A DNA stretch of 54,996 nucleotides from contig CAVZMS010000062.1 of the NCBI GenBank assembly GCA_963776085.1, positions 1 through 54,996 of the forward strand, read 5' to 3'. This document shows, piece after piece, positions 2,071-33,853 of the stretch. A model generated the notes under the pieces. It saw only the letters and a program-made list of their open reading frames with translations. It did no database searches and was not told where the DNA came from. Source of the DNA: an uncultured delta proteobacterium. GTDB taxonomy: Bacteria > Desulfobacterota > DSM-4660 > Desulfatiglandales > HGW-15. A program made the translations under genes and the position numbers. Numbering within the stretch: the stretch's first letter is position 1; each line of letters opens with the position of its first letter.

Positions 2071-2073
2071 CTT

Positions 2074-5527: not shown

Positions 5528-5563
5528 GGGACTGAATATACTGGCTCAAAGCTGATGTTGGGC
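5528..5563 (-). other. Truncated terminal attC (R'' box only)
   Basis: GCCCAAC (5563-5557) is the exact complement of the GTTGGGC that opens this cassette (6747-6741); no R' box found. Confidence 0.6.
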
Positions 5564-5588
5564 GGTGATTCTTGTCGAAATGAACTTC

Positions 5589-6737
5589 CTATAAAAAACC
5601 GTATCGCTTGCGCAAGGCTATGGACAGTTCGCATAATAGATCCAGTATTCGCTCAGCTAATGGCACTGTAAGCACACCTCCGGCGCCGCAGCTTGGAGTG
5701 ATAAGGGCTCGTTGCAAAAGTTGGTCCCGGTCGAAACCCTTGCTTACTAAAGATTCCACACCTTCTTCGAAGCGGGCTATTAGCGAAGGAATCGTTTCGG
5801 ATGCTGCGGCCTCTATGTCAAGCGTCGGCACGATCCCCCAGCCCAGACAACCGCCTCGATCAAAGAATTTTCTAAGTTGGGTAGGATAAAGGGTGATTCC
5901 TTGCATATGATCGTAAGCATCGAAGTCAAGGATATCAAGATCAGTCTCCATTAGCAACGACCAGTCGGTATTCTCCTCGCAGTGGATACCGGCCAGACCA
6001 CCGCGGCTATGGACAGCTGCTACCACCTCATTTATGTCTTTTATAACATCTTCTCGACTTATTGTGATAAAGGTCTGTTTCCCAAATCCAACTAACGACG
6101 GTTCATCGAGAAAAATCATAACCGGAAGACCGAATTCGCTTAAGTGAGCAACCTGCCAAAGTGCTTTTAAAACTATCGTTTTAACGACCACATCACGGAG
6201 TTGATCGTCGTAGTAGGAACAACGGCCATTCTGGTCCAACATGTTAGTGCCGAGGGTAATTGGTCCGGTAACCTGCCCCTTGAGCATTAGCGTTCTGCCC
6301 AAGGCAATTTGTTCGGGTAGACAAGCCACAAATTCGGAAAAACCACCCGCATATTGTTGCGAAAGGTGAAAATTTTCAAGCGCATCAGAATTTTCATCCT
6401 CGATTACGGCCAAATAGCGCTCATAGAAATAGGTCAATTGCCCTGAAAAGTCATTGATTGAAGTAGAAAAGTAAGTTCGATCTCCGTCTTGAACAAGTGC
6501 CGGCATTCCTTCGGTGAACTGCGTCATCATATTCTCATATCGGTTACGTTTAGGAAACTGTGCCCAGGATGGAATCTCAGGTGTGTGCCTAAATATCAAA
6601 GCAGTGCCACGCACCACATCGGTATGCGGTAAGCTTCCAATCGTTGTAGCAAGACAAAAAGGCTCAAAAACCGGCTGTGCCACTTTTGTATATTGCATTT
6701 TCACCTTTATTTTAGAATAGTTCGAAACTGATTTCAT
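5589..6737 (-). CDS. Cassette: core (MetE C-terminal-like) methionine synthase family protein
   Basis: IGSLPH, KGQVTGP, DEPSL, GIHCEENTDW, DFDAY, WGIVPT and ITPSCG motifs. Confidence 0.8.
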   Translation of the reverse strand: MKSVSNYSKIKVKMQYTKVAQPVFEPFCLATTIGSLPHTDVVRGTALIFRHTPEIPSWAQFPKRNRYENMMTQFTEGMPALVQDGDRTYFSTSINDFSGQLTYFYERYLAVIEDENSDALENFHLSQQYAGGFSEFVACLPEQIALGRTLMLKGQVTGPITLGTNMLDQNGRCSYYDDQLRDVVVKTIVLKALWQVAHLSEFGLPVMIFLDEPSLVGFGKQTFITISREDVIKDINEVVAAVHSRGGLAGIHCEENTDWSLLMETDLDILDFDAYDHMQGITLYPTQLRKFFDRGGCLGWGIVPTLDIEAAASETIPSLIARFEEGVESLVSKGFDRDQLLQRALITPSCGAGGVLTVPLAERILDLLCELSIALRKRYGFL

Positions 6738-6740
6738 GCC

Positions 6741-6815
6741 GCCCAACGCTCCTCATAACCGGCTGGCAATGGAGTGCAGCGGAATTGCCAGTCCGAGTTA
6801 ATGCTGTTGTTAGGA
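6741..6815 (-). other. attC site
   Basis: TCCTAAC...GTTGGGC on minus strand with imperfect internal palindrome; overlaps upstream stop codon. Confidence 0.9.
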
Positions 6816-7508
6816 GCTTTTCTCAAATTCCGGATGATACTGTTTCATACATTCGGGACAAATGCCGTGGCTGAAGTCAGCTATGGGATGCTTGATAAGA
6901 TAATACTCAATAGGATGCCAATTGCCTTGATCGTCTCGGATGCTCTTGCAGTTTGCACAAATAGGTATCAGACCTCGAAAGGATTGAAGCTCCATTAAAT
7001 AATCTATCAGTCTTCTGTTCTTGTCTCCGAGGCTTTGGTTAATATGAATCATGTCAAGATGCGACTCAATCAAGTTACGGAACTTCAGCATGAGTTTTTC
7101 TGTTGTTTCTGAATACTTGTTTGCCTTGTTATCCAAGACACAAATAGTTCCAAAAGGCGTTTTGTTAGGCCAGAAAATGGGGAATCCCAAGTAGGAAATC
7201 ATATTCAGCTTGATATCTGGGTTGTTTTTCCAGTTTGCATCTGCCAGGGCGTCAGAAACGAGAAGCTTATCTTGTGTCTTTAGCACTGTCTCACAATACA
7301 GACCGGAGCCGAATAACACTTCCTTATCTCCGGGATGGTAAGGGTTGCCCTCGCTATTGCTCGAAACGAAGACCTCAATATGAGGATCCTGAAATCGCAT
7401 GATCAATGCGACAGGAATCCGAACTATTTGAGTCAAAAGGTTGACCATTTCCTGCCAATTTTCCAGAATGTGTGTCGGCACTTCAATCTTAGAGCTATTG
7501 TCTATCAT
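6810..7508 (-). CDS. Cassette: GAF domain protein with C-terminal Cys/His motif
   Basis: SYLGFPI..FGTICVLD GAF signature; C-terminal PICANCKSIRD...FSHGICPEC. Confidence 0.8.
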   Translation of the reverse strand: MIDNSSKIEVPTHILENWQEMVNLLTQIVRIPVALIMRFQDPHIEVFVSSNSEGNPYHPGDKEVLFGSGLYCETVLKTQDKLLVSDALADANWKNNPDIKLNMISYLGFPIFWPNKTPFGTICVLDNKANKYSETTEKLMLKFRNLIESHLDMIHINQSLGDKNRRLIDYLMELQSFRGLIPICANCKSIRDDQGNWHPIEYYLIKHPIADFSHGICPECMKQYHPEFEKSS

Positions 7509-7515
7509 ATTCTTC

Positions 7516-7576
7516 TCCTCACTCCCCGCCTCACAGGATGCGGTGTTTGCGTTCCTTGTGCAGGCGCATGTTAGGC
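7516..7576 (-). other. attC site with non-canonical R' (GTGAGGA)
   Basis: GCCTAAC-ATGCG-CCTGCAC...GTGAGG-CGGGGA-GTGAGGA on minus strand. Confidence 0.8.
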
Positions 7577-7583
7577 GGCAGAC

Positions 7584-7805
7584 TCAAACAACATGACTCT
7601 CACGTTTCCTCCACCCGAGCACACGGGCTGGAAGAAACAGTAAAGCACGAACCAGCGCGAATACCGCCTCAATCGAGATCCCGATAAGCCGCAACGGCAA
7701 AGACAAAAGCCAAACGACTGGAAAGAGAACCAGCGCAAATAAGGCAATAGGCCAACAAAGCAAGAATAGTATACACCATCCGACAAACAGTATCAAAGCT
7801 TTCAT
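7584..7805 (-). CDS. Cassette: small hydrophobic membrane protein
   Basis: Single ORF between two attC sites; long hydrophobic stretch. Confidence 0.7.
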   Translation of the reverse strand: MKALILFVGWCILFLLCWPIALFALVLFPVVWLLSLPLRLIGISIEAVFALVRALLFLPARVLGWRKRESHVV

Positions 7806-7996: not shown

Positions 7997-9202
7997 TCAC
8001 TGCAAACCAATAGCAGGTGTACTCTCTTCAATAAAAATCACTCCGTCATACAACTTCAGCCAACTTGTGTAATTGGTGTGCCACCCCGGATACAGTCGAT
8101 ATATAGCATGCAATTCTGCAAATTCATGCGAACTCTGATCCTTCTCTAACCATTCCTCAAGAACTCGGTCCTGCGACATCGTCTGAAAATCCAGGAATTG
8201 GATCGGCTTACCGACTTCGCTGAGCGCATAAGCATAATATGCCATGGATGCTGGCCCCACGCTGTATGTGTGGATAGTACTCATCCGGGACGTAAAGGCG
8301 CCATGATTAAATTCAAATCCGAGGAGATATGCCTGATCACCAAATTGCTGCTTGAGATAGTGTCCCATCCAGCCCTCACTATTAGAAATATGCGCATTGT
8401 GTGCCCATAACATAATCTTACTCTCCGCCCCAATTTGCTCCAGTATCCGGCTAACATTTGCGGCCATCACAAGGTCACGGTCGCCAATTCCGGGATCAAT
8501 ACCATGAAAAGTGATCTTACGCGTGGTGCGGGGGTCCGCATTATAAGTGCGCATCCAATCAAGCATGTCCATGACTTCCACTGTCCCCCATGGCCAATAG
8601 AGTACTTCTCGAGGGTTTCCAGACCCACCGGCAATGTAGTCATTGATCACTTGTGCAGTCTCGGCACTCGTTTCCATACCAAAATGCTCATACCCCATTT
8701 CTCGCACAAGGAATTCCAGCATACGGTGTTTCATCTGAAAGAATTCTCTCGTACCATGCGTCGCTTCGCCAAGTGCAACAATGCGCTTCCCTTCCAAGAT
8801 AGATTTAAGTGGCTGTAAATCTTCGAAGCCACTCCCGGCCTGTACAGTGTCTATAGCTATGGTGTGTTCCCGCAAAACGTTAATCACGCCGCCGGTTGCA
8901 TTGTTGGAAGCAGGGGTAAACAGTTCCAACAAAGTAGGAAAGGCGATAACGACAGAAATGACAAATGTAGAGATTAAGCTCACCGTAGCCGTAAATCGTT
9001 TAGGATGACCTAGCGCGAGCCAACCGGCAAACATCCGAAGCAGACTAAAACAGATGATTCCAAACGCAATGGCTGAGGCAAATAAGTTGATAGCAATTAG
9101 GCCGGTCATCAAAGCGGAAACAAAGTAAACTATCGCTGTACCTACACTAGCTACAGCAATTGCTAAAAGGATAAAAAAACAAAACAAGACGTTACGTAAC
9201 AT
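7997..9202 (-). CDS. Cassette: erythromycin esterase family protein with N-terminal membrane helices
   Basis: IVALGEATHGTREF, FHGID, LWAHNAHI and YDGVIFI motifs. Confidence 0.85.
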   Translation of the reverse strand: MLRNVLFCFFILLAIAVASVGTAIVYFVSALMTGLIAINLFASAIAFGIICFSLLRMFAGWLALGHPKRFTATVSLISTFVISVVIAFPTLLELFTPASNNATGGVINVLREHTIAIDTVQAGSGFEDLQPLKSILEGKRIVALGEATHGTREFFQMKHRMLEFLVREMGYEHFGMETSAETAQVINDYIAGGSGNPREVLYWPWGTVEVMDMLDWMRTYNADPRTTRKITFHGIDPGIGDRDLVMAANVSRILEQIGAESKIMLWAHNAHISNSEGWMGHYLKQQFGDQAYLLGFEFNHGAFTSRMSTIHTYSVGPASMAYYAYALSEVGKPIQFLDFQTMSQDRVLEEWLEKDQSSHEFAELHAIYRLYPGWHTNYTSWLKLYDGVIFIEESTPAIGLQ

Positions 9203-16331: not shown

Positions 16332-16396
16332 GCCTAACGCCCGGTTTCACAGGGCGCGACGATCTATCAGCGCTCCTGTGCAAACCGATGTTATCC
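16332..16396 (-). other. attC site
   Basis: GGATAAC-ATCGG-TTTGCAC...GTGAAA-CCGGGC-GTTAGGC on minus strand. Confidence 0.9.
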
Positions 16397-17005: not shown

Positions 17006-17035
17006 GGATAACAATAATTAGATTGATCCATATAA
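17006..17035 (-). other. attI site (crossover G/TT at 17012)
   Basis: AATCTAA-TTATT-GTTATCC on minus strand; GTTATCC matches R'' GGATAAC of the first cassette; no attC hairpin upstream. Confidence 0.8.
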
Positions 17036-17064
17036 AATGAATATCTTCAATTTACTATAGATAT

Positions 17065-17093
17065 AATATGCCATCGATTCTTCAGAAAATCAA
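17065..17093 (-). promoter_or_regulatory. Candidate cassette promoter Pc
   Basis: TTGATT-N17-CATATT on minus strand between the intI stop and attI; AT-rich context weakens the call. Confidence 0.3.
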
Positions 17094-17138
17094 GCTATAA
17101 TTAATGTAATCTTAATCACTTATGACTCATAGTACTAT

Positions 17139-21112: not shown

Positions 21113-21362
21113 TAATGAAAAGCGTCCTTCTAGGGGAATGGCCTTCCACAGGAGAAAGGTATGCAGATTTTGCGCGGACAGCAGTCTTGCAATAGATTAT
21201 AAGGATGTGAAAATGCTGAGGATGTTCACCACAGAGCGTGGAAAGATCGTCCCTAGAAGGATATCAGGTAACTGTGCCAAGCATCAACGAATAATTTGCG
21301 TGGCCATAAAAAGGGCCAGGGATATCGCCCTCTTACCACATACAACAGCGACTATCAGGTAA
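21102..21362 (+). CDS. rpsR: 30S ribosomal protein S18 (Zn-binding type)
   Basis: [33 protein letters not shown]. Confidence 0.97.
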
Positions 21363-21375
21363 TCATATCGGAGAT

Positions 21376-22324
21376 ATGATAATTTCAAATATAATCGGGT
21401 GTACCGGAGCAGTTATTTTTTTCCTCTTAGTCTCTGTCTGGGTACCTCTTGTTGGGCCTCTTTTTAGCTTACTGATACCGTTACCATTTCTATATTATTT
21501 AAGCAAATCGGGATCTTAGTCAGGGGTGGAAAACCGGTTTAATATCCCTCTTAATCATAGGCCTGATTGCAAGGCTGGCAGGTTATCCCCAGTTAATATT
21601 ATTTTGTATTGCATTAGGCGTAATCGGTCTGATTATTTCCGAGATATTTAAAAGGGAATTCACATTCGGCCTGACCATATTATGGGGGACTGTACTTGTG
21701 TTATTCATCGGCGCGGTCTTCCTTTTTTTTATAGGTCTTTCCAAGGGAACGAGCGCCGTTGAACTGATCGTAGACTATCTCCAGGGTAATGTTAATAGAT
21801 CCATTAGCCTTTATGAGGAGATGGGATTGGATCAGGAGACAACAATCCAGTTAAGACAGTTTGGAACGGTACTGAACAGTATAATTGCACGAATCTATCC
21901 GGCCTTGTTAGTAATCGGTGCAGGGGTTATAATATGGATCAACGTGGTGGTAAGCAAGCCGTTATTTAGGCTGGGGAGGGTTAAATATCCTGATTTAGGT
22001 CGAACGGACATGTGGCATGCCCCGGAATTTATGGTATGGGGTGTAATTGCTGCGGGATTTTCTTTATTTTTTCCAATAACGGGTATAAAATTCATAGCAT
22101 TAAATACCCTGATCGTCCTACTGGTTATATATGTCTTTCATGGCCTGTCCATTATTATGTTCTTCTTTAACAGGCACAATATTCCGCTATGGGCCAGATT
22201 CGGCGTATATCTCCTGATCATGGTCCAGCTGATTTTCCTGGTTGTTCTGGCCCTCGCCGGACTTTTTGATCAATGGATCGATTTTAGAAAAATTCATAAA
22301 AAAGGGTTGGAGGAAATTCAATGA
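21376..22324 (+). CDS. YybS/DUF2232 membrane protein (5' part frameshifted)
   Basis: Position between rpsR and rplI; GLFDQWIDFR C-terminus. Confidence 0.85.
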
Positions 22325-22767
22325 AGGTTATCTTAAAAACAGATATGGATTCTTTGGGCCTGGAAGGCTCCACGGTTAATGTGGCCAAAGGCTATGCCAG
22401 AAATTACCTGATTCCGAATGGGTTTGCCATAGAGGCCAACAATCAGAACATCAGGCTTATGGAGATGCAGAAGAAAAAGATTGATGCCAGGAGAATCAAG
22501 ACGAAAGAGGATGCTGAAAAGATCAAGCTGGAGATAGCGAATACTGTGGTTACCCTGACCCAGAAGGTTGGTGAGGAGGACAAGTTATATGGTTCGGTAA
22601 CCAGCATGGATATAGCCGCCCAGTTGAAAAATCTGGGAATCGACATCGATCGAAGAAAGATACAACTGGATAAACCGATCAGGACTCTTGGTGAATATAA
22701 TGTGTTGATAAAACTCCATCCGGAGGTAACCGGCTCAATTAAGGTGATAGTGGCCCCTGAAGAGTAG
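22321..22767 (+). CDS. rplI: 50S ribosomal protein L9
   Basis: MKVIL, VAKGYARNYLIP, KLYGSVT. Confidence 0.97.
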   Translation: MKVILKTDMDSLGLEGSTVNVAKGYARNYLIPNGFAIEANNQNIRLMEMQKKKIDARRIKTKEDAEKIKLEIANTVVTLTQKVGEEDKLYGSVTSMDIAAQLKNLGIDIDRRKIQLDKPIRTLGEYNVLIKLHPEVTGSIKVIVAPEE

Positions 22768-22854
22768 ATCCCGTCTGTTGATCAGGGTATTGGAATTTAT
22801 AATGAGTCTTCAACTTATAACTCTTTAAAAAGGCCTCGGTAAGGATAATTGTTT

Positions 22855-24217
22855 ATGGCTCAAGCAAAAGAAAAGACCGTTATAGACTCCATCAAGATCC
22901 CTCCCCACAACATAGAGGCTGAACAGGCCATATTGGGCGGCATACTCATCAATAATGATGCCATGAACCAGATCATGGATATCCTGTCCCCCGAGTGTTT
23001 CTACAGGGAAGCTAATTCATGCCTGTTTCAGGGTATGGTCGATCTTTACAATAATAATGAGCCTATCGATCTTATAACACTTTCCCATCATCTCACTGAG
23101 AAAAACCTGCTGGCAAAGTCCGGAGGAACCGATTATCTCACGGCCCTTGTGGACGCGGTCTCTACTTCAGCCGGTATCGTCTCTCACGCAGAGATCGTGC
23201 GTGACCTTTACATGAGAAGGAGGCTGCTTACCCAGTGTTCCGCTATCTCAGAGTCATGCTTCCAGGGCTGGCAGGCCACCGATGAATTGCTTGACGCCGC
23301 TGAACAGTCAATCTTTGATATAGCCGAGGATAAGGTCGGTGAAGGATTTATCCAGCTAAATGCCGTTATCAAGGAGAGCTTTAAGAAGCTTGAGAGCGTG
23401 TCGGAACATGAAGGTTTTATCACCGGCGTGCCCACGGATTTTTATGAAATGGACCGTCTTACCGCCGGTCTACAGCCCTCGGACCTGATTATTATCGCCG
23501 GCAGACCCAGCATGGGGAAGACGTCCCTAGCCATAAACATTGGTTATAACGCGGCAAAAAGGACCAGAAAAGGAGTTGCGATATTCTCCCTGGAGATGTC
23601 AAAGATGCAGTTAGGCCTGAGATTGCTGGGGTTCGAATCCCTTATCAATGCCACAAAGCTCCGCACAGGGACCTTAAGGGATACTGACTGGACAAAATTG
23701 ACTACTGCCGCCGGCAATCTTGCGGAACTACCAATATTCATCGATGACTCTTCCGGACTAAGCGTCCTTGATATGAAGGCAAGGTGCAGGAGGCTGGTTA
23801 AAAAATCGGATTTAACCCTTATTATTATCGATTATCTTCAGCTGGTACAGGGCAGAAGGTCGGCGGAATCCCGACAGATCGAGATATCGGAGATCTCCAG
23901 GTCGCTCAAGGCCCTCGCAAAGGACCTCAATGTGCCTGTTATAGCGATCTCCCAGTTGAACAGGAAGATTGAGGACCGCCCGAATAAAAAACCCCAGCTG
24001 GCCGACCTGAGGGAGAGCGGGGCCATTGAACAGGATGCCGACGTAATCGCGTTCATCTACAGGGATGAGGTGTATCATGGCCCAACATGAAGAGAACCGG
24101 AATGTGGCAGAGATCACTCTTGCAAAACAGAGGAACGGACCCACCGGCTATTTTAAATTAACCTTTCAGCAGGAATTTACCCGTTTCAGGGATTACGCCG
24201 AAGAAGAGCACATATAA
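22855..24217 (+). CDS. dnaB: Replicative DNA helicase (frameshift near 24085)
   Basis: PPHNIEAEQAILG, GRPSMGKT, DYLQL, DLRESGAIEQDAD; KQRNGPTG continues in the next frame. Confidence 0.95.
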
Positions 24218-24242
24218 TCAAGAGGCCTGAACCATAGAGAAA

Positions 24243-25887
24243 GTGCAAGGCAAGACCGGCGGCCTTAAGGCCGGTCAATTAAAATACCTCCAGAATATCT
24301 ACCGACGGAGGATATCCCGTCATGATATCATACCACGAGAACTTCTGCGCCTGATAGCCTCCATCTCATCCGAAATAAAGAGACAGATCGCCCTGATCGT
24401 AACGCGGCGGGGTGATATAGTCTATGTGATCGTGGGAGATGATAGGCATATATTGATACCTGACCTCGGCAGGTTCAGATCCGGGGCCGGCCGTCTCAGC
24501 GGTCTCAGATGCATACACACACACCTTCACGGCGAACCGCTTTCAAAGGAAGATATGACGGATATGGCCCTTCTGGGCCTGGATATCATGGCATGCGTCC
24601 AGGTCAACGCTGAAGGGATCCCCGGTCCTATTCATTATGCCCATATCCTTCCTGAAAACCGCCAGAATCAGCAGTGGCAGGTAACAAGCGTCCCTGACGT
24701 GGGGCAATTAGACATCGATTTTGAAGAATTGATACAGTCCCTTGAGGATGAGATCGGAAGGACCGGCAGGAAACAAACTCCGGCAAAAGGCGAGAAGGCG
24801 ATACTTGTTGGTGTAACCGCCGGTCCTGTAACGGATGCAATGGAATCATTGGAGGAGTTGAAGGCACTGGCGATCTCAAATAACCTTGAGATAGCGGACA
24901 TCGTCGTTCAAAAGATAAAAGAAGCCTAATCCCCGGTTTTTAGTGGGCAGGGGCAGGTTAAGCGACCTGGTCCTCCGATGTATCCAGACAGGGGCTAACC
25001 TGATGGTATTCGACAATGAACTGACCCCTGCGCAGGTAAGAAGTCTGACCGACTACTCGGAGATGAAGATCATAGACAGGAGCCAGCTCATCCTTGACAT
25101 CTTCTCCAGGAGGGCGGTTACAAGGGAAGGGAAGATACAGGTGGAACTCGCGCAGTTGAAGTATCTCCTGCCCAGGCTGGCGACGAAGAACAGCGCTATG
25201 TCCAGGCTGACCGGAGGGATCGGCGGCAGGGGTCCTGGAGAGACCAAGCTGGAGATCAATCGCAGGAGGGCAAGGGAACGGATCTCAAGGTTGAACAAAG
25301 AGCTTTTAAAGATAGGCAAGCAGAGAAAAGAAAGGAGAAGACTCAGAAATGATACGGGGATTCCTGTCATCTCAATAGTGGGATATACAAACGCCGGCAA
25401 ATCAACCCTTCTTAACAACCTGACCTACAGCAGTGTCACTGCCGGGAGCCGCCTTTTTGAGACGCTGGACCCCAGCAGCAGGCGACTCAGGTTTCCCAGA
25501 GAGAGGGAGGCCATCATCACTGATACGGTAGGTTTTATTCGAAATCTTCCGGAAAGCCTTATGGAGGCCTTTGCATCGACATTAGAGGAACTTCATGACG
25601 CGGACCTCCTGCTTCATGTGGTCGATGCGGCGAGCCCAGTGATGGAAGAGCAGATAAAGGTCGTTGAAGATATACTGACACAACTGGGCCTGCAAGATGT
25701 CCCCTCTATCCTTGTTCTTAACAAGGCCGACCTATTAACCGAGGATCAGGCGGCCGCCCTGTCCAGGATGTGTAATGGCATTGCCGTATCCGCCCTTGAT
25801 CAGAAGACATTACACCCCCTGCTTTTAGAAATTGAAGGCTTTATCTCCTCTTTGCCTGTCCCTGAAAAGATGTATAATAATGCTTGA
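24243..25887 (+). CDS. hflX: GTPase HflX, long form (frameshift near 24925)
   Basis: GGRGPGETKLE, GYTNAGKST, DTVGF, NKAD. Confidence 0.93.
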
Positions 25888-26040
25888 CTTCTATTAGGAA
25901 ATAGATTAAATTGCACTAACCTAATAAAGGCCCGCCTTTTTTAGCGGGCCTGTTTCGTTCTGAAGGAAAGACCCGTTTGTTAAAAGTGGCATCCTGAAGT
26001 AAGGAACATTAGAGTAAATTTTTGAAAGGAGGATGTCATC

Positions 26041-26241
26041 ATGGCAAACGGAACCGTAAAGTGGTTCAGTGACAAAAAGGGATTCGGTTTTATTGAACAG
26101 GAAGACGGTGGAGATATATTCGTTCACCATACAGCCATCAACATGACCGGATTCAAGAGTCTTCATGAAGGTGACCATGTAAGCTTTGAAGTAGAACAAG
26201 GCGCTAAGGGTCCCTCGGCCAAGAACGTCACTGTGGTGTAA
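26041..26241 (+). CDS. Cold-shock protein (CspA family)
   Basis: GTVKWF..KGFGFI and DIFVHH RNP motifs. Confidence 0.95.
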
Positions 26242-26260
26242 TCCGTAGAAATACACTCAT

Positions 26261-26298
26261 AAGGGCATCTTGTCGCATATAGACAAGATGCCCTTTCT
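26261..26298 (+). terminator. Rho-independent terminator after csp
   Basis: AAGGGCATCTTGTC-N7-GACAAGATGCCCTT followed by T-rich bases. Confidence 0.8.
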
Positions 26299-26477
26299 GT
26301 CTCTTACCTGATCCATAAGCTTCAACTCGCTCTCCTCTCTTGTCCCCTGGAATTCCCTACTTAGGCATTTCGCTTGGGCCCTGGAATCCTTGACTCCTTG
26401 AATCCTCTACTTATTTATTCCATTTTTGTTTTTTCTCCATAATTTTGATATAAATATCTCACGTTTCAAGAAACCCT

Positions 26478-26512
26478 AATTATCATGTTTCATGATAATT
26501 TATATGTTATAC
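26478..26512 (+). other. Entry site (attI-like or secondary site) of array 2
   Basis: GTTATAC (26506-26512) matches R'' GTATAAC (27453-27459); preceded by palindrome AATTATCATG-TTT-CATGATAATT. Confidence 0.65.
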
Positions 26513-26531
26513 CGTTAGAGAAAGGTAGTCG

Positions 26532-27449
26532 ATGAAACTGATTGTTGCAACATGTCAATTTCCTACTAGTGCAGACACCAGCCGGAACTTACGTTACGTG
26601 TTGAAACAGATGCATAGTGCTAAGTACAAGGGAGCACATGTAGCGCATTTCCCGGAGGCGTGTCTGTCGGGGTATGTTGGACATGATACCGAATCCTATA
26701 AGGACTTTGACTGGGAATTACTTCATACATCCATTCTTGAGATAATTAACCAAGCTCGCAAGCTGAAGCTCTGGGTGATTTTAGGGTCAATACACCGCCT
26801 CACTGGTCGACATAAACCTCACAATAGTCTCTATATCATCAGCGATCGAGGAGATCTCGTCGACCGCTACGATAAAATGTTTTGTGCAGGAGATCGTTCG
26901 GGTAGATCCGGTGAGTTACTCCACTTCAGTCCTGGAAATCATTTCAGCGTTTTCGACATTCGGGGAGTTCGCTGTGGAGCAATCATTTGCCACGAATACC
27001 GTTATCCTGAGCTTTATCGGGAGTACAAGCGCAAAGGTGTAGAACTTATGTTTCATTCCTATCACGCTGCCAATATTGGGCAGAATCGTTATCGGGCGAT
27101 GCAGAAACAGGTCGGTGGTGAGTTCCATAAATTGAATCGAGGTTCTACCTTACCTGAAATTACTATGCCGGCATCGATGCAAGCCGCATCTGCAAGTAGT
27201 CACATTTGGATTAGTTGCAGCAATTCTTCAGCAAAGGAAAGCTGCTGGCCTAGCTTTTTTGTCCGACCGGATGGTGTGATTATTGGCCGTCTTCGGAGGA
27301 ACATACCAGGAGTTTTGATTTCAACGGTAAACACTAAGCAGAAGTTGTATGACTCCACGGCCGCATGGAGAGATAGGGCAATGCGTGGTATCTATTATAG
27401 TGGCAAATTGATTAAGGACAAGCGTTCAGATGAGCGGAGATTGCTGTAA
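26532..27449 (+). CDS. Cassette: carbon-nitrogen hydrolase (nitrilase family)
   Basis: HFPE, RYDK and IICHEYRYPE catalytic triad motifs. Confidence 0.9.
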   Translation: MKLIVATCQFPTSADTSRNLRYVLKQMHSAKYKGAHVAHFPEACLSGYVGHDTESYKDFDWELLHTSILEIINQARKLKLWVILGSIHRLTGRHKPHNSLYIISDRGDLVDRYDKMFCAGDRSGRSGELLHFSPGNHFSVFDIRGVRCGAIICHEYRYPELYREYKRKGVELMFHSYHAANIGQNRYRAMQKQVGGEFHKLNRGSTLPEITMPASMQAASASSHIWISCSNSSAKESCWPSFFVRPDGVIIGRLRRNIPGVLISTVNTKQKLYDSTAAWRDRAMRGIYYSGKLIKDKRSDERRLL

Positions 27450-27452
27450 TAC

Positions 27453-27514
27453 GTATAACCTTTCACTGCAGCCGACCGCAAAAAGGCAGTGCCGGCTGAG
27501 TTCGGGCGTTAGGC
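27453..27514 (+). other. attC site
   Basis: GTATAAC-CTTTC-ACTGCAGCCG...CGGCTGAGT-TCGGGC-GTTAGGC. Confidence 0.9.
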
Positions 27515-27540
27515 GCAATCTTGTTGTCTTGGGAGCTTAA

Positions 27541-28659
27541 ATGACATCCGAGCCATCACAACGGGCGACACGTTCGAAGTGGAAGAAGCTGATCGCAGTT
27601 GCGGCTATCTTGTGCATCGTAGTTGTCCTACTGCCCCAATGTGGCGGGCCTAGAGACTCGGACCGTTCCAGCCCTCCCCCTCGTGCTCCAAAAGGAACCA
27701 CGGTTACGTCGATGAGCGTCAATGGGCTGGACGGTGATTTCTTCCGCCGAGCTTCCAAGAAGCCGCAAAAGGCGCTGATCCTTTTGGGAGGATCAGAAGG
27801 AGGCAAGAGTTGGAATGACCAGACTGAGTTCATTGAAGAGCTGGTTGAGCAGGGCTTCTGCGTGCTGTCGCTGAGCTACTTCGGAACCGGCAATCTCCCA
27901 AGAGACCTCCGAGGCATTCCGCTGGAGTATTTTTCCAAGGCGTTTCTTTGGCTATCGAAGCAAGAGGGCGTCGTGGTTCCCAACGACTACGCAGTGATGG
28001 GCGTTTCTCGCGGAGCAGAGTTGGCATTGCTTCTGGGCAGTCGTTACTCTGATGTTAGTGCGGTCATCGCAATTGCACCGAGTTCAGTGGTCTTCCCGGG
28101 ACCTCCGACTGGCACACTAGATGCCTTGCGGTCCCAGCATTCGGCTTGGAGCTTCAATGGCCAGGAGTTGAAGTTCGTGCCAATGCCGTATTCCTGGACC
28201 ACGCTGCGAGGCTTGATCACCGGTAAGCGGACGCGGATGTTCGAGAAAGCACTCCGCAACTCCGGGCGTGTAAAGGAGGCGGCGATTCCCGTCGAGAGAA
28301 TCCATGGTCCGATCCTTCTGGCCTCATTCACACGAGATCAAATCTGGCCTTCCACTCTCATGTCCGAGCAGATCGTGCAACGCCTGCGTGAAAACCAATT
28401 CCGTTTTCATTTCGAGCACGCAGCGTACGACGCAGGCCACTCCCAGTGGTCCATCAAGCCATGCCACACCAACATCTTGAACTTCCTGAGGGAACAAGTA
28501 TTGACTTCAGCCCGGGAGGGCCTTGCCCCAGCACCAAAGGACGTGCTCGACCCGTCTGCTCAAAAACGCATGGCCGAACCAAGCGGTCCAGCGAACGGGA
28601 GCCAGCCGATTACCCCAGAGACAAATCGAACGTCATCGGCGATTCGCTCCCGTCGCTGA
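27541..28659 (+). CDS. Cassette: acyl-CoA thioester hydrolase/BAAT C-terminal family hydrolase
   Basis: LLGGSEGG, IPLEYF, GVSRGAELAL, DQIWPS, AGH. Confidence 0.85.
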   Translation: MTSEPSQRATRSKWKKLIAVAAILCIVVVLLPQCGGPRDSDRSSPPPRAPKGTTVTSMSVNGLDGDFFRRASKKPQKALILLGGSEGGKSWNDQTEFIEELVEQGFCVLSLSYFGTGNLPRDLRGIPLEYFSKAFLWLSKQEGVVVPNDYAVMGVSRGAELALLLGSRYSDVSAVIAIAPSSVVFPGPPTGTLDALRSQHSAWSFNGQELKFVPMPYSWTTLRGLITGKRTRMFEKALRNSGRVKEAAIPVERIHGPILLASFTRDQIWPSTLMSEQIVQRLRENQFRFHFEHAAYDAGHSQWSIKPCHTNILNFLREQVLTSAREGLAPAPKDVLDPSAQKRMAEPSGPANGSQPITPETNRTSSAIRSRR

Positions 28660-28673
28660 CCTTTGTGTTAGCG
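28573..28673 (+). other. attC site (overlapped by upstream ORF)
   Basis: GCCGAAC...GTTAGCG; GGTCCAGCGAACGGGAGC/GCTCCCGTCGCTGACC stem. Confidence 0.9.
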
Positions 28674-28733
28674 TCGGTCGGGTACAGTAAAGTATGATAC
28701 TTTGCGAACATAGAATTCGAATGGAGGAAAGCA

Positions 28734-29351
28734 ATGTTGAATGAACTAAATACTGATAAATTGGCGATCCGCGAGATTGTTGAGAACTGGGTATTGTGGC
28801 GAGACGCCGGCGATTGGGAGCGGTTTGCGACGGTCTGGCATCCAGACGGCTGGATGACGGCCACTTGGTTCCAAGGGACGGCACAAAAATTCATAGAAGT
28901 GAGCCGTGAAGGTTTCATTAAGGGCGTCAACATCTTGCACTTTTTAGGGGGATGGACGTGCGAGGTTAATGGTGATCGTGCCATCTCGCAAACCAAGATG
29001 ACGATAAACCAGCGCGCTCAGGTGGATGGTGTTCTCGTCGATGTTGTATGCACCGGACGTTTTTACGATTTTTTTGAGAAGCAGAAAGGACGCTGGGGCA
29101 TTGTCCGACGGCAACCCATTTACGAGAAAGACCGGCTCGATCCGGTAGATCCATCAGCGGTTCTCAAGCTCGATCCTGAATGGCTTGCGCGCTTTCCCGA
29201 AGGATATCAACATCTTGCTTATCTGCAGTTAAAGAATGGTTTCAAAGTTAAGAGCGATCTACCCGGCTTACGTGGCCCTGTGGTCGAGAAGCTTTACGCA
29301 GAAGGCAAAGCTTGGCTATCTGGTTCCGTCCAGCCCGGCGAGCCGCTTTGA
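28734..29351 (+). CDS. Cassette: SnoaL/NTF2-like family protein
   Basis: WRDAGDW..F..VWHPDG, HFLGG, GRFYD..EK..GRWGI. Confidence 0.85.
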   Translation: MLNELNTDKLAIREIVENWVLWRDAGDWERFATVWHPDGWMTATWFQGTAQKFIEVSREGFIKGVNILHFLGGWTCEVNGDRAISQTKMTINQRAQVDGVLVDVVCTGRFYDFFEKQKGRWGIVRRQPIYEKDRLDPVDPSAVLKLDPEWLARFPEGYQHLAYLQLKNGFKVKSDLPGLRGPVVEKLYAEGKAWLSGSVQPGEPL

Positions 29352-29464
29352 ACGCTTTATCTAAACATTCCCACTGCATTTGAGCTGGGATTGTTCGGAG
29401 GTATTGATGTAAATTGATAACTGGTTGAATAATTTACGGACTGTAGAAAAGAGAAATTAAAAAA

Positions 29465-29596
29465 CGCTAACAGCCGGCTCCAGCATGATAACTGCTTATG
29501 CTGGTAATGAAACGGAAGTCCTGAGTTGCACAAAGCGTATTGGGTTTTGGTCGTTGATCTCAGAAGTCGCATTCACAGCTGAGCCGTTAGTTGGGC
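29465..29596 (+). other. attC site (132 bp)
   Basis: CGCTAAC-AGCCG-GCTCCAGC...GCTGAGC-CGTTA-GTTGGGC; R'' matches the opening GTTAGCG. Confidence 0.85.
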
Positions 29597-29652
29597 ACAT
29601 GGATCCAGCTGGCTAAAAATGTGTCCTGTAGTGTCAAAAAAGGGAATATATT

Positions 29653-30192
29653 ATGCTCAAGATGGAAAACGTCGCCTTGTTAATTGTTGATATTCAAGGC
29701 AACTTAGCACACGCGATGCATGGGAAAGAACTTCTGTTCAAGAACGTGCAAAAGCTTATCAAAGGGATCCAGGTTTTAGGAATTCCTATTCTCTGGACAG
29801 AGCAGAATCCTCAAGGCCTGGGGCCGACAATTCCTGAAATTGCAGACATCTTGTCCAATATTAAGCCTATCAGCAAGATGAGCTTTAGTTGTTGCCAGAA
29901 TAACCTCTTTGTACAAGCACTGAAGGCTCTGAATCTCAAACAGGTCTTGATTGCAGGTATTGAGGCACATGTCTGCGTCTATCAAACAGCGGTAGATCTA
30001 GTAGACCTAGGGTATGAGGTTCAAGTTGTGACTGACGCTGTATCTTCAAGAAACATGGAGAACAAGGAAATCGGTTTACAGAAAATGAGAGATTCTGGTG
30101 TCAGTTTGACGAGTGTCGAAACTGCTCTCTTTGAACTGCTTAGGGTGGCGGAGGGAGAACAGTTCAGACAGATTCTCAAGATTGTGAAATAA
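29653..30192 (+). CDS. Cassette: isochorismatase family hydrolase
   Basis: LLIVDIQ, TEQNPQGLGPT, KMSFS, GIEAHVCVYQT. Confidence 0.9.
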   Translation: MLKMENVALLIVDIQGNLAHAMHGKELLFKNVQKLIKGIQVLGIPILWTEQNPQGLGPTIPEIADILSNIKPISKMSFSCCQNNLFVQALKALNLKQVLIAGIEAHVCVYQTAVDLVDLGYEVQVVTDAVSSRNMENKEIGLQKMRDSGVSLTSVETALFELLRVAEGEQFRQILKIVK

Positions 30193-30199
30193 TTGGCTT

Positions 30200-30262
30200 G
30201 TATAACTTGTTACTGCACGAGACGGCGCGACAGCCGCGCCGGTTGTGAGTATGGCGTTAGGC
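30200..30262 (+). other. attC site
   Basis: GTATAAC...ACTGCAC...GTGAGT-ATGGC-GTTAGGC. Confidence 0.85.
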
Positions 30263-30281
30263 AGAAATAGGAGGTGAAAAC

Positions 30282-30611
30282 ATGGAAGATCAAAGACACT
30301 CAGGGTTTGGAATCGCATCGTTCATTACAAGTATCGTTTCAGGAATTCTGATCTTTCTGGTTATAATTACTGCCGGGGTAATACAGGTATCTACGCCGAG
30401 GGGGTTGAACGAACAATCCGCTACTGCGATGACGATTGGCATGTTTCTATTTGTATTCTTATTCGTGTCGCTTGTAGCACTTGGGCTCGGTATCGTAGGG
30501 CTCTTGCAGAAGGAGCGGAAGAAGATCTTCGCTATCCTTGGAACTGTGTTCTCAGCGGTAACGATAGTAGCAACGATTTCCATAATTTTCCTCGGGATTG
30601 CAATGAAATGA
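30282..30611 (+). CDS. Cassette: three-TM hypothetical membrane protein
   Basis: GGAGG RBS; HSGFGIASF and RKKIFAILG pattern. Confidence 0.75.
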   Translation: MEDQRHSGFGIASFITSIVSGILIFLVIITAGVIQVSTPRGLNEQSATAMTIGMFLFVFLFVSLVALGLGIVGLLQKERKKIFAILGTVFSAVTIVATISIIFLGIAMK

Positions 30612-30628
30612 CCTCAGGAGGGCATTAT

Positions 30629-30687
30629 GTCTAACATCGGTTTGCATAGGAACGCAAAACACCGTCCTGTGAGGTGCGACATTGACA
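30629..30687 (+). other. Degenerate attC site (R' ATTGACA)
   Basis: GTCTAACATCGGTTTGCATAGGAACGC...CCTGTGAGG, closely related to the attC sites at 16332 and 7516. Confidence 0.75.
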
Positions 30688-30700
30688 GGAGAAACGGATA

Positions 30701-31120
30701 ATGATCACGATAGGAATTTGCGGTGATGATTGTCTTTACTGCCCCCGATATATAGCCACAAAAAACGGAGGCAACAAAGAAATGGAGGAAGTCAAAGAAT
30801 TGTGGGTTCGTCTTGGATTGAGAGAACCAGCCTTTCCCGCCAAGGAGCTGGCTTGTTTCGGGTGCAGGCCAGAAAACAAATGCGCTTATTTGGAAGTCCG
30901 CACTTGTGCCTATGAAAAAGGAATTGAAAACTGTGGTCTTTGTCAGGTGTATCCGTGCGAATTGATAAATACGGTATTCGAGAAATCTGAAAAACTATCC
31001 TCTCTTGCGACCAGAATTTGTACATCTGAAGAAATAAACAAACTCCAGAAAGCGTTCTTTTCCAAACGCCAAAACCTCAATCAAATACATTTCGAGAAGC
31101 ATGAGGACGAAAGAAAATAG
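30701..31120 (+). CDS. Cassette: DUF3795 family Cys-rich protein
   Basis: CGDDCLYCP, CFGC, NCGLC..YPC. Confidence 0.85.
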   Translation: MITIGICGDDCLYCPRYIATKNGGNKEMEEVKELWVRLGLREPAFPAKELACFGCRPENKCAYLEVRTCAYEKGIENCGLCQVYPCELINTVFEKSEKLSSLATRICTSEEINKLQKAFFSKRQNLNQIHFEKHEDERK

Positions 31121-31121
31121 A

Positions 31122-31143
31122 CCGGCTGATTTCTACGTTAGCA
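31122..31143 (+). other. Half attC (L' and R' only)
   Basis: CCGGCTGA-TTTCTAC-GTTAGCA; GTTAGCA matches the next R'' TGCTAAC. Confidence 0.65.
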
Positions 31144-31179
31144 TCATGACCAAATCAAAATTACGCGAAGGATATATTT

Positions 31180-32073
31180 GTGACATATAATTTACATGAC
31201 TCTCAATTGTCGAAAAAACTCATACCTACAAAGGCGATGACAGATATGGGAGCCGTGGAATATGTGGAAATTGGCGACGGCCCGGTTGTCGTTGCTTTAC
31301 ATGGCGCAATGGGCGGCTGGGACCAAAGCCTGATTCTTGCCCAAACCATTGGCGATTCTGACTATCGCTATATAGCCATGACCCGTCCTGGATATCTCGG
31401 TACACCGATGAGTTCAGGAAAAAACTCTGAGCAGCAAGGTGACCTTATTGCATCATTATTGGACACGCTTAATGTCACCAAAGCAGGTGTAATGGCTGTC
31501 TCAGGAGGGGGACCTGCCGCAGTTCAGTTTGGCCTCCGACATCCTGCCAGATGCACAGGGCTCGTATTGATATCAACTTGTGCTGACAAGATTAATACCC
31601 CGATTCCTTTTTCTTTCAAAGTAATGAAGTATCTCGCTCGCTGGTCTTTTTTTGCCGATAGGTTCCGCAAAAAAGCCGAACAAGACTTGGAAGCCGTGGC
31701 CAAGCGCTCTATTCGAGACCCTGAAATTCTAGCTCGCACGGTCAATGACAATGACACATGGCCATTATTTACGACAATGTTACTCAGTACTTTCGACCGA
31801 ATGGGGCAGCGTATTGAGGGTACCGAAAACGACATTAAGATTAGCCATACCACGACGTATTCGTTAGAAAATTTGAACGTACCGGTCTTGGTTGTTCATG
31901 GGACTGAGGACCAACTAGTGCCATTTGAAACGAACGCGAAGATATACAAGACGCGTGTGCCAAATGCTGAACTTCTGTCGATTGAGGGTGGCGAGCATGT
32001 CGCTATTTTCACCCATCGTAATATGGTCAGACCGAAGGTAATTGAATTTATGCAGCATCATTTCAAGACATAG
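31180..32073 (+). CDS. Cassette: alpha/beta hydrolase
   Basis: LHGAMGG, RPGYLGT, VSGGG nucleophile elbow, HGTED, GGEH. Confidence 0.9.
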   Translation: MTYNLHDSQLSKKLIPTKAMTDMGAVEYVEIGDGPVVVALHGAMGGWDQSLILAQTIGDSDYRYIAMTRPGYLGTPMSSGKNSEQQGDLIASLLDTLNVTKAGVMAVSGGGPAAVQFGLRHPARCTGLVLISTCADKINTPIPFSFKVMKYLARWSFFADRFRKKAEQDLEAVAKRSIRDPEILARTVNDNDTWPLFTTMLLSTFDRMGQRIEGTENDIKISHTTTYSLENLNVPVLVVHGTEDQLVPFETNAKIYKTRVPNAELLSIEGGEHVAIFTHRNMVRPKVIEFMQHHFKT

Positions 32074-32104
32074 CTATTGAATGGGAACATATTGTAATTC
32101 CATA

Positions 32105-32165
32105 TGCTAACCAATCACTGGTGCGGACGCAAAAAAAGCCGCGCCGCACAGTTCAATCGTTATGT
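32105..32165 (+). other. attC site
   Basis: TGCTAAC...CTGGTGCGG/CCGCACAG...GTTATGT. Confidence 0.9.
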
Positions 32166-32209
32166 GTGAATATGGTAATCCGGAAGTTGAGCTTCAAAAA
32201 TATTACCCC

Positions 32210-32237
32210 TTGACATTGATACCAATATTGATACTAT
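32210..32237 (+). promoter_or_regulatory. Putative hicAB promoter
   Basis: TTGACA-N16-TACTAT with extended TG; repeated TGATAC motif. Confidence 0.55.
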
Positions 32238-32243
32238 TATACC

Positions 32244-32504
32244 ATGTCTAAAATCAATGAAATAATATCTGATATGAGTCGAAATCCAAAGGGAATCAGT
32301 TTCAGCGATTTATGCAAGGTTTGTGATCATTATTTTGGGAAACCGCGTCAAAGTGCCACCAGTCACAGGGTCTATAAAACGCCCTGGCAAGGAGATCCTC
32401 GAATAAATATCCAAAATTATAAAGGGAAGGCAAAGTCATATCAGGTGAAACAGGTGCTTTTGGCGCTTGAAAAATTGGAGGTAAATCATGGCATTAAAAA
32501 ATGA
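32244..32504 (+). CDS. hicA: HicA family toxin
   Basis: NPK..F.DL.KVC..YFG.PRQ..TSH.VYKTPWQGDPRINIQ. Confidence 0.85.
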   Translation: MSKINEIISDMSRNPKGISFSDLCKVCDHYFGKPRQSATSHRVYKTPWQGDPRINIQNYKGKAKSYQVKQVLLALEKLEVNHGIKK

Positions 32505-32817
32505 TCGATATACATACAGAGTAACATGGTCAGAGGATGATAAAGAATATGTGGGTTTATGTGCAGAATTTCCAAGCCTGAGTTGGTTATCTGCTACCCC
32601 GGAGGCGGCATTAAAAGGTATCCGAAAAATAGTAGCTGAAACCATTGCAGATATGGAATCAAACGATGAGATTATCCCCGAGCCAATTGCTTGTCGACAG
32701 TATAGCGGCAAGTTTATGGTTAGAGTTCCTCCAGATGTTCATCGTAATCTTGCCATTCGGGCAGCTGAATCCGGAATAAGCCTTAACCGGGTTGTTAGTT
32801 CAAAACTCAGCCAATAG
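32488..32817 (+). CDS. hicB: HicB family antitoxin
   Basis: YRVTWSEDD.EYVGLCAEFPSLSW, YSGKFMVRVPP.VHR. Confidence 0.9.
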   Translation: MALKNDRYTYRVTWSEDDKEYVGLCAEFPSLSWLSATPEAALKGIRKIVAETIADMESNDEIIPEPIACRQYSGKFMVRVPPDVHRNLAIRAAESGISLNRVVSSKLSQ

Positions 32818-32826
32818 ATCAAAACC

Positions 32827-32890
32827 TTATAACCATCTGCTGCACCTGATCGCTGAAAAAAATCGGCTCCAGGCAAACCGTGCGTTAAAC
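32827..32890 (+). other. attC site
   Basis: TTATAAC...CTGCACCTG...CAGG...GTTAAAC; related to the attC at 9262. Confidence 0.8.
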
Positions 32891-32909
32891 TTTTTCTCTA
32901 GGAGACATA

Positions 32910-33407
32910 ATGACACCCATCACGAAATCTAAGCAAATCCTCGGTCTCATCGGGTGGCTAATACTTACCTTTGTTGCGGCGGCCATTGGGGCTGTCGCGT
33001 CCGCTGAAGCCGGCCTCTTTTATCAGCAACTTACTCGCCCCGAATGGGCGCCGCCAGCATGGTTATTCGCCCCGGTCTGGGCTGTCCTGTACATCCTCAT
33101 CGGTATTGCTGCCTGGCTCGTTTGGCGAGTCCACAGCTTCCATGCTGCGCGCAGCGCCCTGTCCCTGTTTATCGTCCAACTGGCCGCAAACGCGCTTTGG
33201 ACGTGGATCTTTTTTACCTGGAGACAAGGTGCACTGTCGTTTGTTGAAATACTCGTCCTTTGGGCCCTTATTCTAGTCACGGTTGTTTTCTTTTGGCGTA
33301 CGCGACCGCTTGCAGGGATTTTACTGCTCCCTTACCTGGCGTGGGTGACTTTTGCGTCCGTACTCACATTCACAATATGGAAACTTAATCCTCTTCTCCT
33401 GGCCTGA
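32910..33407 (+). CDS. tspO: TspO/MBR family protein
   Basis: L.RP.WAPP.WLFAPVW..LY, NALWTWIFF, LLPYLAWV.FA. Confidence 0.92.
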   Translation: MTPITKSKQILGLIGWLILTFVAAAIGAVASAEAGLFYQQLTRPEWAPPAWLFAPVWAVLYILIGIAAWLVWRVHSFHAARSALSLFIVQLAANALWTWIFFTWRQGALSFVEILVLWALILVTVVFFWRTRPLAGILLLPYLAWVTFASVLTFTIWKLNPLLLA

Positions 33408-33418
33408 GACGGAAAATC

Positions 33419-33853
33419 ATGCGACTCTGGACGCTTCATCCAAAATATCTTGACCGTGCAGGTCTCGTCGCGCTTTGGCGGGAAGCCCTCCTGGCAAGCG
33501 CTGTGCTCAAAGGAGAGACCCGGGGCTACCGCCGTCATCCGCAGCTTTATCGTTTCAAATCCATCGATTCGCCGCTTTGTGCTATTAACGCATACCTCAG
33601 CGCCGTTCTCCTTGAAGCCGATTCGCGTGGATACTCTTTTAACCGCAATAAAGTGGGGCAGATTCACAGCCGCGTTCGGATAACCAGCACCGACGGCCAG
33701 CTGGCGTACGAATGGCAGCATCTACTGGGAAAATTGCAGACCCGGAATCCGGATATTTATCAAACACTGCTGAGTGTGGAGGCCATCGATCCGCATCCGT
33801 TATTCATTATCGAGCCCGGCCAAATAGAGCACTGGGAACGCCTTGGTTCTTAA
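33419..33853 (+). CDS. Pyrimidine dimer DNA glycosylase/endonuclease V-like protein
   Basis: MRLWTLHPKYLD..GLVALWREALLA..VL.G.TRGY..HPQL.RF. Confidence 0.85.
   Translation: MRLWTLHPKYLDRAGLVALWREALLASAVLKGETRGYRRHPQLYRFKSIDSPLCAINAYLSAVLLEADSRGYSFNRNKVGQIHSRVRITSTDGQLAYEWQHLLGKLQTRNPDIYQTLLSVEAIDPHPLFIIEPGQIEHWERLGS

Follow-up and report, generated by a model that had tools for sequence, protein, structure and literature searches.

The stretch of DNA analysed here, hereafter the window, is the entire contig C62 (CAVZMS010000062.1, 54,996 nucleotides) of G000, a metagenome-assembled genome (MAG) of 2.12 Mb in 128 contigs, 72% complete and with 1.6% contamination. It carries one integron integrase gene, intI-A, two cassette arrays that run away from each other, and a block of housekeeping genes between them. 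The question raised by this locus is which integrase loaded the second array. A sequence-only reading of the window had answered that IntI-A serves both, i.e., that the locus is an integron with two attI sites, one of them a satellite site filled in trans. Our comparison of the head of array 2 with its other copies leads to a different answer, which we consider probable: array 2 would be a cluster of attC sites lacking an integron integrase (CALIN) that has kept the attI and the promoter-like head of an integron of a second integrase lineage, IntI-B, and the IntI-A integron next to it would be unrelated. In the following, G002, G003, G009, G037 and G066 designate other genomes, C-numbers contigs and L-numbers individual loci. 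G009 is a relative of the same family (its hflX is 82% identical to that of the window) and is 95% complete.

The head of array 2 and its repeat family

Array 2 does run rightward from 26506, as had been read: the heptamer GTTATAC (26506-26512) has its reverse complement, GTATAAC, at 27453-27459, where the first attC site begins. attC sites were located by eye and with our own scripts, not by a covariance model, and the number of such heptamers is not significant by itself (4 seen, 3.58 expected). The first cassette encodes a carbon-nitrogen hydrolase (26507-27514, plus strand, with its attC at 27453-27514). The same cassette was found on metagenome contigs from two other studies with about 98.6% identity, exactly from 26506 to 27450, between unrelated, attC-like flanks. 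Since the match in these foreign contigs starts exactly there and the flanks differ, 26506 is a true cassette boundary.

The DNA on the left of this boundary, at 26412-26506 on the plus strand, is here called platform B and ends at the crossover G at 26506. The lead came from a weak integrase match on contig C27 of G000, which turned out to be a decayed integrase 3′ end followed, after about 200 bases, by a stretch resembling window 26412-26506 and then by a DUF3024 cassette whose attC matches the first bases of the cassette itself. A blastn search of 26297-26531 against G000 gave 14 copies, including that of the window. A motif search added copies on C122 and C19, as well as one likely chance match on C46 of G000, which brings the total to 16 sites on 14 contigs in this partial genome. 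In an alignment of 14 copies (12 from G000 and two from G009), the mean pairwise identity of the 60 columns that precede the crossover G was 76%, and it fell to 31% in the 25 columns that follow. The platform paralogues are 73-87% alike. Past the G, the bases vary between copies and look like the right half-core of an attC. For 8 of the 13 copies tested, an attC-like site 370-1800 bases downstream has an inverse core equal to the reverse complement of the first seven bases after the crossover; both copies of G009, when read, also had a matching inverse core downstream, and the copy on C13 is followed by three or more cassettes in a row whose cores agree. Platform B thus bears the signature of an attI site, being constant on the left of the crossover and cassette-derived on the right, with a homology that stops at the G|TT crossover and a cassette beyond. 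The earlier proposal that array 2 begins at an attI-type site and not at a broken attC is borne out, its head being a member of a conserved family of attI-like repeats.

This family also bears on the origin of array 2 by seeding at a secondary genomic site of the attG type. Integron integrases are reported to be able to insert cassettes outside att sites (bioRxiv 10.1101/2022.09.11.507474), and secondary sites are listed, together with integrase loss and rearrangement, among the proposed origins of CALINs in the survey of Cury et al. 2016 (PMC4889954). What lies on the left of the junction in the window, however, is a conserved element of about 100 bases that heads arrays at many loci and is found downstream of intI-B genes, and we regard seeding at an arbitrary site as highly improbable.

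Two further features of platform B are conserved throughout the family. The perfect palindrome noticed earlier in front of array 2, with two arms of 10 bases around 3 bases, lies at 26478-26500 (plus strand). Its outer arms are invariant in the 14 copies and two inner pairs co-vary, with 10 double-change cells, a number reached by 9 of 500 shuffles. A reading of it as an attC-like hairpin is tentative at best, since just 2 of its 10 pairs co-vary and several copies break the symmetry. The second feature is a candidate cassette promoter at 26426-26454 (plus strand), which consists in the window of TTGTTT, a 17-base spacer with TG, and TATAAA; in the family it takes the form of a TTGTCT-type box, 17 bases and a TG-extended TATAAA. 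This conserved box, 50-80 bases upstream of the crossover, probably drives the first cassettes. By contrast, the likeness of the overlapping CCCTAATTATCATGTT to attI, on which the sequence-only reading had drawn, hinges on the T at 26476, a base that is specific to the window copy, since G or A stands at this position in the 13 others of the alignment.

The copy of the window is truncated at its 5′ side, where it abuts a fragment of a short dispersed repeat at 26367-26414 (plus strand) that resembles a miniature inverted-repeat transposable element. This repeat measures about 113 bases and occurs in at least 15 copies with 75-92% identity (including C105:1292-1811), directly upstream of several platform copies. 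The repeat-abutted, truncated platforms form a subfamily to which the window copy belongs, and it was probably the repeat that truncated the adjoining copies. Variants with two tandem palindrome boxes before the crossover are present in G000 at C100:4771-4830 and C122:6037-6100. We also considered that the element of about 100 bases might itself be a cassette inserted in an older attI, and rejected this idea, as the short copies start at differing points and share no single G|TT.

Two integrase lineages

The copies that retain more upstream DNA indicate the integrase from which the platform comes. In G000, remnants of an integrase C-terminus precede the copies on C27, C70 and C13 (the latter at a contig end), and their ending is unlike that of IntI-A. 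Decayed intI 3′ ends were also found upstream of the platform at G009:C22, G009:C39 and the metagenome locus L163. On one G009 contig, C22 (L038), a platform copy comes first; after it follow a toxin-antitoxin cassette and the attC of this cassette, then a truncated integrase, a palindrome box, the promoter-like box, a second palindrome and the crossover. The integrase of this locus lacks its 5′ part and covers residues 134-341 in IntI-A numbering; it is 50% identical to IntI-A, scores 285 bits against TIGR02249, and has its best matches in named genomes in MAGs of Desulfobacteraceae (65-82% identity). At three loci, L044, L045 and L046, a palindrome directly follows the integrase stop, and the same short AT-rich motif, ending with G then TTA, lies about 230-250 bases downstream; the integrase frames of L044 and L046 are full length (495 and 411 codons). 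Because the remnants and L044-L046 share this layout and this crossover motif, we named the clade IntI-B and took platform B as its cognate attI. IntI-B is a second integrase clade, native to Desulfobacteraceae, and platform B would be its cognate attI region, which adjoins integron integrase genes or their remnants at C27, C13, C70, G009:C22 and L163, with the same architecture at L044 and L046. At G009:C22, the segment 5975-7460, with the truncated integrase and a platform copy, lies within an array and is flanked by attC sites, so that it is formally a large cassette. Platforms may therefore spread as cargo of such large attC-bounded cassettes.

IntI-A belongs elsewhere. Its gene, at 17139-18221 on the minus strand and in the same direction as array 1, is intact and combines the Pfam domains Phage_integrase and SAM_4. 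The protein scores 482 bits against TIGR02249 (cutoff 265) over profile positions 1-315 of 315, and it aligns over residues 31-341 with the solved structure of IntI4 (2a3v_A), including the insertion specific to integron integrases. The earlier observation of a single intI in the window extends to the whole assembly, where this gene is the sole full-length integron integrase; the remaining tyrosine recombinases are Xer-like, with 21-34% identity over long alignments. Between the stop of intI-A and array 1 lie 126 bases of AT-rich DNA that hold the cognate insertion site, attI-A (17010-17138, minus strand, with its core at 17010-17028). The closest homologues of IntI-A, 86% and 78% identical, are encoded at L094 and L100, in MAGs labelled Pirellulales and Bacteroidota. 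At both loci the attI-A core and the crossover G lie at an equal distance 3′ of the gene, and two further upstream boxes are also common to both. The core is thus kept in two of the three close homologues compared, the third having just 147 bases of downstream sequence. In G000 the core occurs once, and attI-A finds only itself by blastn. Among 40 relatives, the best gene is only 57% identical to IntI-A. As the best matches come instead from MAGs of other phyla, IntI-A was probably acquired horizontally.

Could IntI-A nevertheless load both arrays, with 26440-26520 as its satellite attI? In support of this proposal, IntI-A is the sole intact integron integrase found in the assembly, the junction of the first cassette is precise, and the same attC families feed both arrays (pairs I3 and I6). 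Also, the long platform copies carry an upstream box of 8 + 7 bases (ATCAATCT, two bases, AATTATT) that resembles the attI-A core. The truncated copy of the window, however, is without this box, and platform B as a whole is unlike attI-A: it is a multicopy family that aligns with the sites linked to IntI-B, whereas attI-A is conserved in the IntI-A clade and single in this genome. One study, moreover, reports that attI recognition is restricted to the cognate integrase (PMC2095811). Nor is the proximity of array 2 to intI-A remarkable, because with about 16 platform islands in a genome of perhaps 3 Mb (2-3 Mb in our estimate), one of them is expected to lie within 10 kb of intI about once in ten cases. 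Taken with the copy-specific base on which the cited attI resemblance depends, these points make a two-attI integron served by IntI-A an unlikely reading of the locus, and the satellite site proposed for this integrase is better assigned to the other clade. The sequence-only reading had itself named relatives with a second intI after csp as a finding that would speak against it; the IntI-B remnants beside platforms amount to this in substance, though not at this csp locus. The geometric part of the earlier reading holds: according to standard site-specific recombination logic, two arrays in inverted orientation would recombine so as to invert the block between them, and not to delete it.

The history that we favour can be put as follows. 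Two integrons of different lineages would flank a conserved housekeeping block by chance. Platform B would be the attI and cassette-promoter region found about 235 bases downstream of integrases of the IntI-B clade, and ordinary recombination between attI and attC would have brought in cassettes at the G of its conserved 3′ end, the first of them probably driven by the promoter-like box. The copy of the window would have lost its integrase gene, and the short dispersed repeat now abuts the truncated platform. What the sequences compared show is that the family exists, that its homology breaks off sharply at the crossover, that attC inverse cores match, that platform B is linked to IntI-B, that attI-A is a distinct site and that array 2 lies in an island. 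The order of events, the promoter activity and any present action of an integrase on the platforms are a matter of inference.

Several observations weigh against this history. No trace of intI-B was found between csp, the gene preceding the platform, and the platform of the window, so that the relic history of this copy is deduced from its paralogues. The link to full-length IntI-B genes rests on a shared architecture and a short motif, and blastn detected platform B beside none of the closest IntI-B homologues (0 of 80 loci). A consensus promoter scan did not call the conserved box at 26426-26454. Also, an intact IntI-B may be present in the missing 28% of G000. Finally, cassette 1 is about 98.6% identical to its copies elsewhere and the platform paralogues are only 73-87% alike; cassettes could thus still be arriving after the loss of the integrase, which would favour an active site served in trans over an inert relic.

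Integrase-less platforms and their genomic setting

Of the 61 genomes of the family, three (G000, G009 and G066) contained platform B DNA, and the 16 genomes of the same order outside the family gave one weak match of 26 bases (G037). A scan of metagenomes with a 19-letter pattern returned at least 119 stretches, 80 of which were examined; 22 of these passed a check for downstream features and 3 were evident chance matches, leaving 19 metagenome platform loci. One of them is a duplicate, and another carries an integrase fragment 100% identical, over 204 residues, to that of a G009 contig. Eleven of the metagenome loci extend 1 kb or more to the upstream side; no intact integrase was found there in any of them, and one, L163, shows a C-terminal remnant. 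No intact IntI-B was found in G000 or in G009 either, and no platform-B-like sequence was found downstream of the one intact integrase of G009 (on its contig C46).

Such a distribution may be that of relics or that of landing pads still in use. All the first cassettes differ among the 30 distinct platform loci compared. One chromosomal locus could be compared between two lineages (L154 and G009:C22): from the upstream gene to the crossover at the end of the platform, the two sequences are 86% identical, and past the crossover they are unrelated. The core has been conserved at the integrase-less metagenome loci, and cassette 1 is almost identical to copies elsewhere. These observations would be expected if the platforms were live pads served in trans by an integrase of the IntI-B type, encoded in the unassembled 28% of G000 or on a mobile element. 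Against this stand the failure to find such an integrase even in the 95%-complete G009 and the possibility that the cassette differences are older than the loss of the integrase. Also, the intI remnants, judged by eye, are about as conserved as the platform, so that conservation alone is no proof of selection. We therefore consider this reading rather doubtful. In a broader form, in which the dispersed pads are kept functional and are filled by one of three enzymes (IntI-A, an unassembled IntI-B or a mobile integrase), it gains slightly and can be held as a tentative possibility, below that of a CALIN inherited from an IntI-B integron.

The window copy lies in an island. G009 has about 30 bases between hflX and the homologue of window 36765-37727 (85% identical), beyond which comes that of 37932-38699. 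Because G009 joins hflX directly to the first of these homologues, window 25888-36764 (plus strand) constitutes an island relative to G009, with csp, platform B, array 2, a broken gene of the major facilitator superfamily (MFS), an aldo-keto reductase gene and a DUF6794 gene. Conversely, the G000 locus orthologous to the first platform locus of G009 (on C41) is without a platform. Since the array 2 island is absent from G009 and the C41 locus has no platform in G000, we conclude from the genomes compared that platform-headed islands come and go between species. The csp gene of the island (26041-26241, plus strand) has terminator-like hairpins on both sides (25928-25951 and 26261-26295). The genome has four csp paralogues with a mutual identity of about 70%, and this one, which was not found at this position in G009, G003 or G002, lies within the island and outside the conserved block.

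That a housekeeping block lies between the arrays is confirmed by annotation and synteny. It includes genes for a metallo-beta-lactamase (MBL) fold protein and, on the minus strand, an inositol monophosphatase (IMPase), followed by rpsF, rpsR, a DUF2232 gene, rplI, dnaB and hflX (18601-25887, mixed strands), with csp after it. The order from the MBL-fold gene through IMPase and rpsF to hflX is common to G003 and G002, and that from rpsF to hflX is also found in G009. In the window hflX occupies two frames (24243-24929 and 24943-25887), and in relatives it is one open frame of about 560 codons; the split is either a frameshift or an assembly error. A replication origin at the minimum of the cumulative G-C skew, near 20 kb, was considered and dismissed, as the skew tracks the coding strand (it is negative again at 42-45 kb, where the genes are on the minus strand). 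Long AT-rich hairpin repeats made of TTCAACATT-type units lie at 37728-37931 and 50606-50716.

This synteny also bears on whether the juxtaposition of the two arrays is a chimera of assembly or binning. The window is a contig of a MAG, no public sequencing run covers the housekeeping block, and an exact repeat of 128 bases (window 5400-5527, identical to C105:2655-2782 of G000) coincides with a jump in G+C content. Yet both flanks of the array 2 island, hflX and the homologue of 36765-37727, are syntenic with a single G009 contig, and the MBL-IMPase-rpsF block, to which the intI-A side is attached, has the same order in G003 and G002. A chimeric origin of the juxtaposition is hard to credit. 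In the window, this repeat of 128 bases is found where array 1 ends and the G+C content rises from about 45% to 55-63%; on C105, a platform copy follows some 470 bases downstream of it. The repeat may mark the end of arrays, or it may mark a mis-join. Beyond it, window 1-5400 is rich in G+C and contains broken or partial genes (a DUF362 gene split at 2866-4193, a C-terminal fragment of the GFO/IDH/MocA family, TauE, an amidohydrolase), which may be either old cassettes or DNA of foreign origin.

After its first cassette, array 2 continues on the plus strand from 27515 to 36210, with attC sites at 28573-28673, 29465-29592, 30200-30262, 30629-30687, 32105-32165 and 32827-32890, among others. The start of the cassette and the inverse core of its attC agree for cassettes 1, 2 (6 of 7 bases), 3, 7 and 9. 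The decay of attC sites had been placed in the middle and at the far end of the array, which is roughly right: the fifth and sixth sites are decayed, the fifth (30629-30687) having a 3′ core changed from GTT to ATT and the sixth being reduced to a 3′ core near 31138, and the second site (28573-28673) is intact. The array had been thought to end at 33853. It probably extends to a weak last site at 36146-36210 that matches the start of the last cassette at 32884, and would thus end near 36.2 kb. This last "cassette" is unusually long (3.3 kb) and holds genes for TspO, a pyrimidine-dimer glycosylase and the aldo-keto reductase, as well as the MFS transporter gene (33843-35061), which is broken into two overlapping frames. 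Array 2 qualifies as a CALIN, with attC sites from 27453 to 32890, no integrase within 4 kb and the nearest intI ending at 18221, 8.3 kb from 26506. A search for intI-like frames within 18222-36764 gave none, and no cassette common to both arrays or to different contigs was found.

Array 1 extends leftward from 17012 to 5483 on the minus strand, as had been read, and contains about 14 attC sites with their cassettes. The first cassette (ParD/ParE) begins after the G at 17012, and its attC at 16332-16396 opens with the exact reverse complement of the cassette start; start and inverse core agree for cassettes 1-3 (16396, 15838, 15291). The cargo includes ParDE and HigBA toxin-antitoxin pairs, Cass2, a methyltransferase and, at 7997-9202, a gene of the erythromycin-esterase family (Pfam PF05139, E 2e-41), whose function is predicted from this match. 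With an intI, an adjoining attI and at least one attC, the left element is a complete integron. The last 20 or so codons of IntI-A (17139-17200) overlap an imperfect palindrome of 18 bases; this palindrome is conserved at L094 and L100 (86% and 78% homologues), where it is non-coding, and part of it is repeated beside the attI-A core. The palindromes near the 3′ end of IntI-A and attI-A are candidate accessory binding sites for the integrase.

Rfam contains no attC model, and the sole Rfam match in the window is a tRNA. Alignment of 11 attC sites with MAFFT and RNAalifold gave no pairs, so that no covariance model was made, and two energy-based attC finders were dropped as too unspecific. A finder based on arm alignment recovered most known sites, missed 28573-28673 and also matched a tRNA and a hairpin repeat.

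Comparison with known integron systems

The origin of CALINs, and their use by an integrase elsewhere in the cell, is a debated point of integron biology. As attI sites are known for very few integron classes, the head of a CALIN can normally not be read. In the present case, two new attI families could be defined by comparison alone, and one of them persists and multiplies without an integrase. The platform, at about 100 bases, is a natural substrate with which loading in trans can be approached, using two candidate enzymes, and it provides a signature that separates "decapitated integron" CALINs from those due to rearrangement or secondary sites. If the pads were active, cassette expression sites would number dozens per such genome, and not one. 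If they were filled in trans, this lineage would possess an "integron" distributed over many sites instead of one platform with one array. Searches of the literature on additional or orphan attI sites and on the loading of CALINs in trans, limited to main texts, found no description of a multicopy natural attI.

The left integron is complete and co-oriented, with IntI-A, attI-A and array 1 all on one strand, and IntI-B and platform B are laid out alike. Co-orientation of intI and cassettes is the layout of Treponema and other "inverted" integrons. Compared with other co-oriented complete integrons, the left element presents nothing unusual except its likely horizontal origin. The most frequent layout is divergent, according to the CALIN survey (PMC4889954).

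That survey also reports that 50% of CALINs are in genomes encoding IntI, that intI pseudogenes are close to just 15 of 279 CALINs, and that a search for attI outside classes 1-3 was not possible in it (PMC4889954). Array 2 is like these CALINs in its recognisable attC sites (at least seven), in its distance from the nearest integrase, which points away from it, and in the presence of an IntI elsewhere in the genome. It differs from them in that its head can be identified as an attI with a promoter-like box, and in that this head is present many times (16 sites in a partial genome).

The insertion of cassettes at attG sites likewise places them away from the integrase, as reported in the preprint cited above (bioRxiv 10.1101/2022.09.11.507474); the target here is instead a conserved, integron-derived platform and not an arbitrary genomic GTT.

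The attI1 site of class 1 integrons combines a core site with accessory direct repeats and is associated with the Pc promoter. Platform B resembles it by a crossover after the G that precedes TT, by repeated boxes upstream that look like protein-binding sites, and by a promoter or promoter-like sequence that reads into the cassettes. Unlike attI1, platform B lies downstream of the integrase gene and not between divergent genes, has two palindrome-like boxes of 22 bases about 190 bases apart, and persists and multiplies without an integrase gene. The category to which array 2 belongs, the CALIN, is thus already known; what is new is that the head of the array can be read, and that it recurs as a family of many copies which nearly always lack an integrase.

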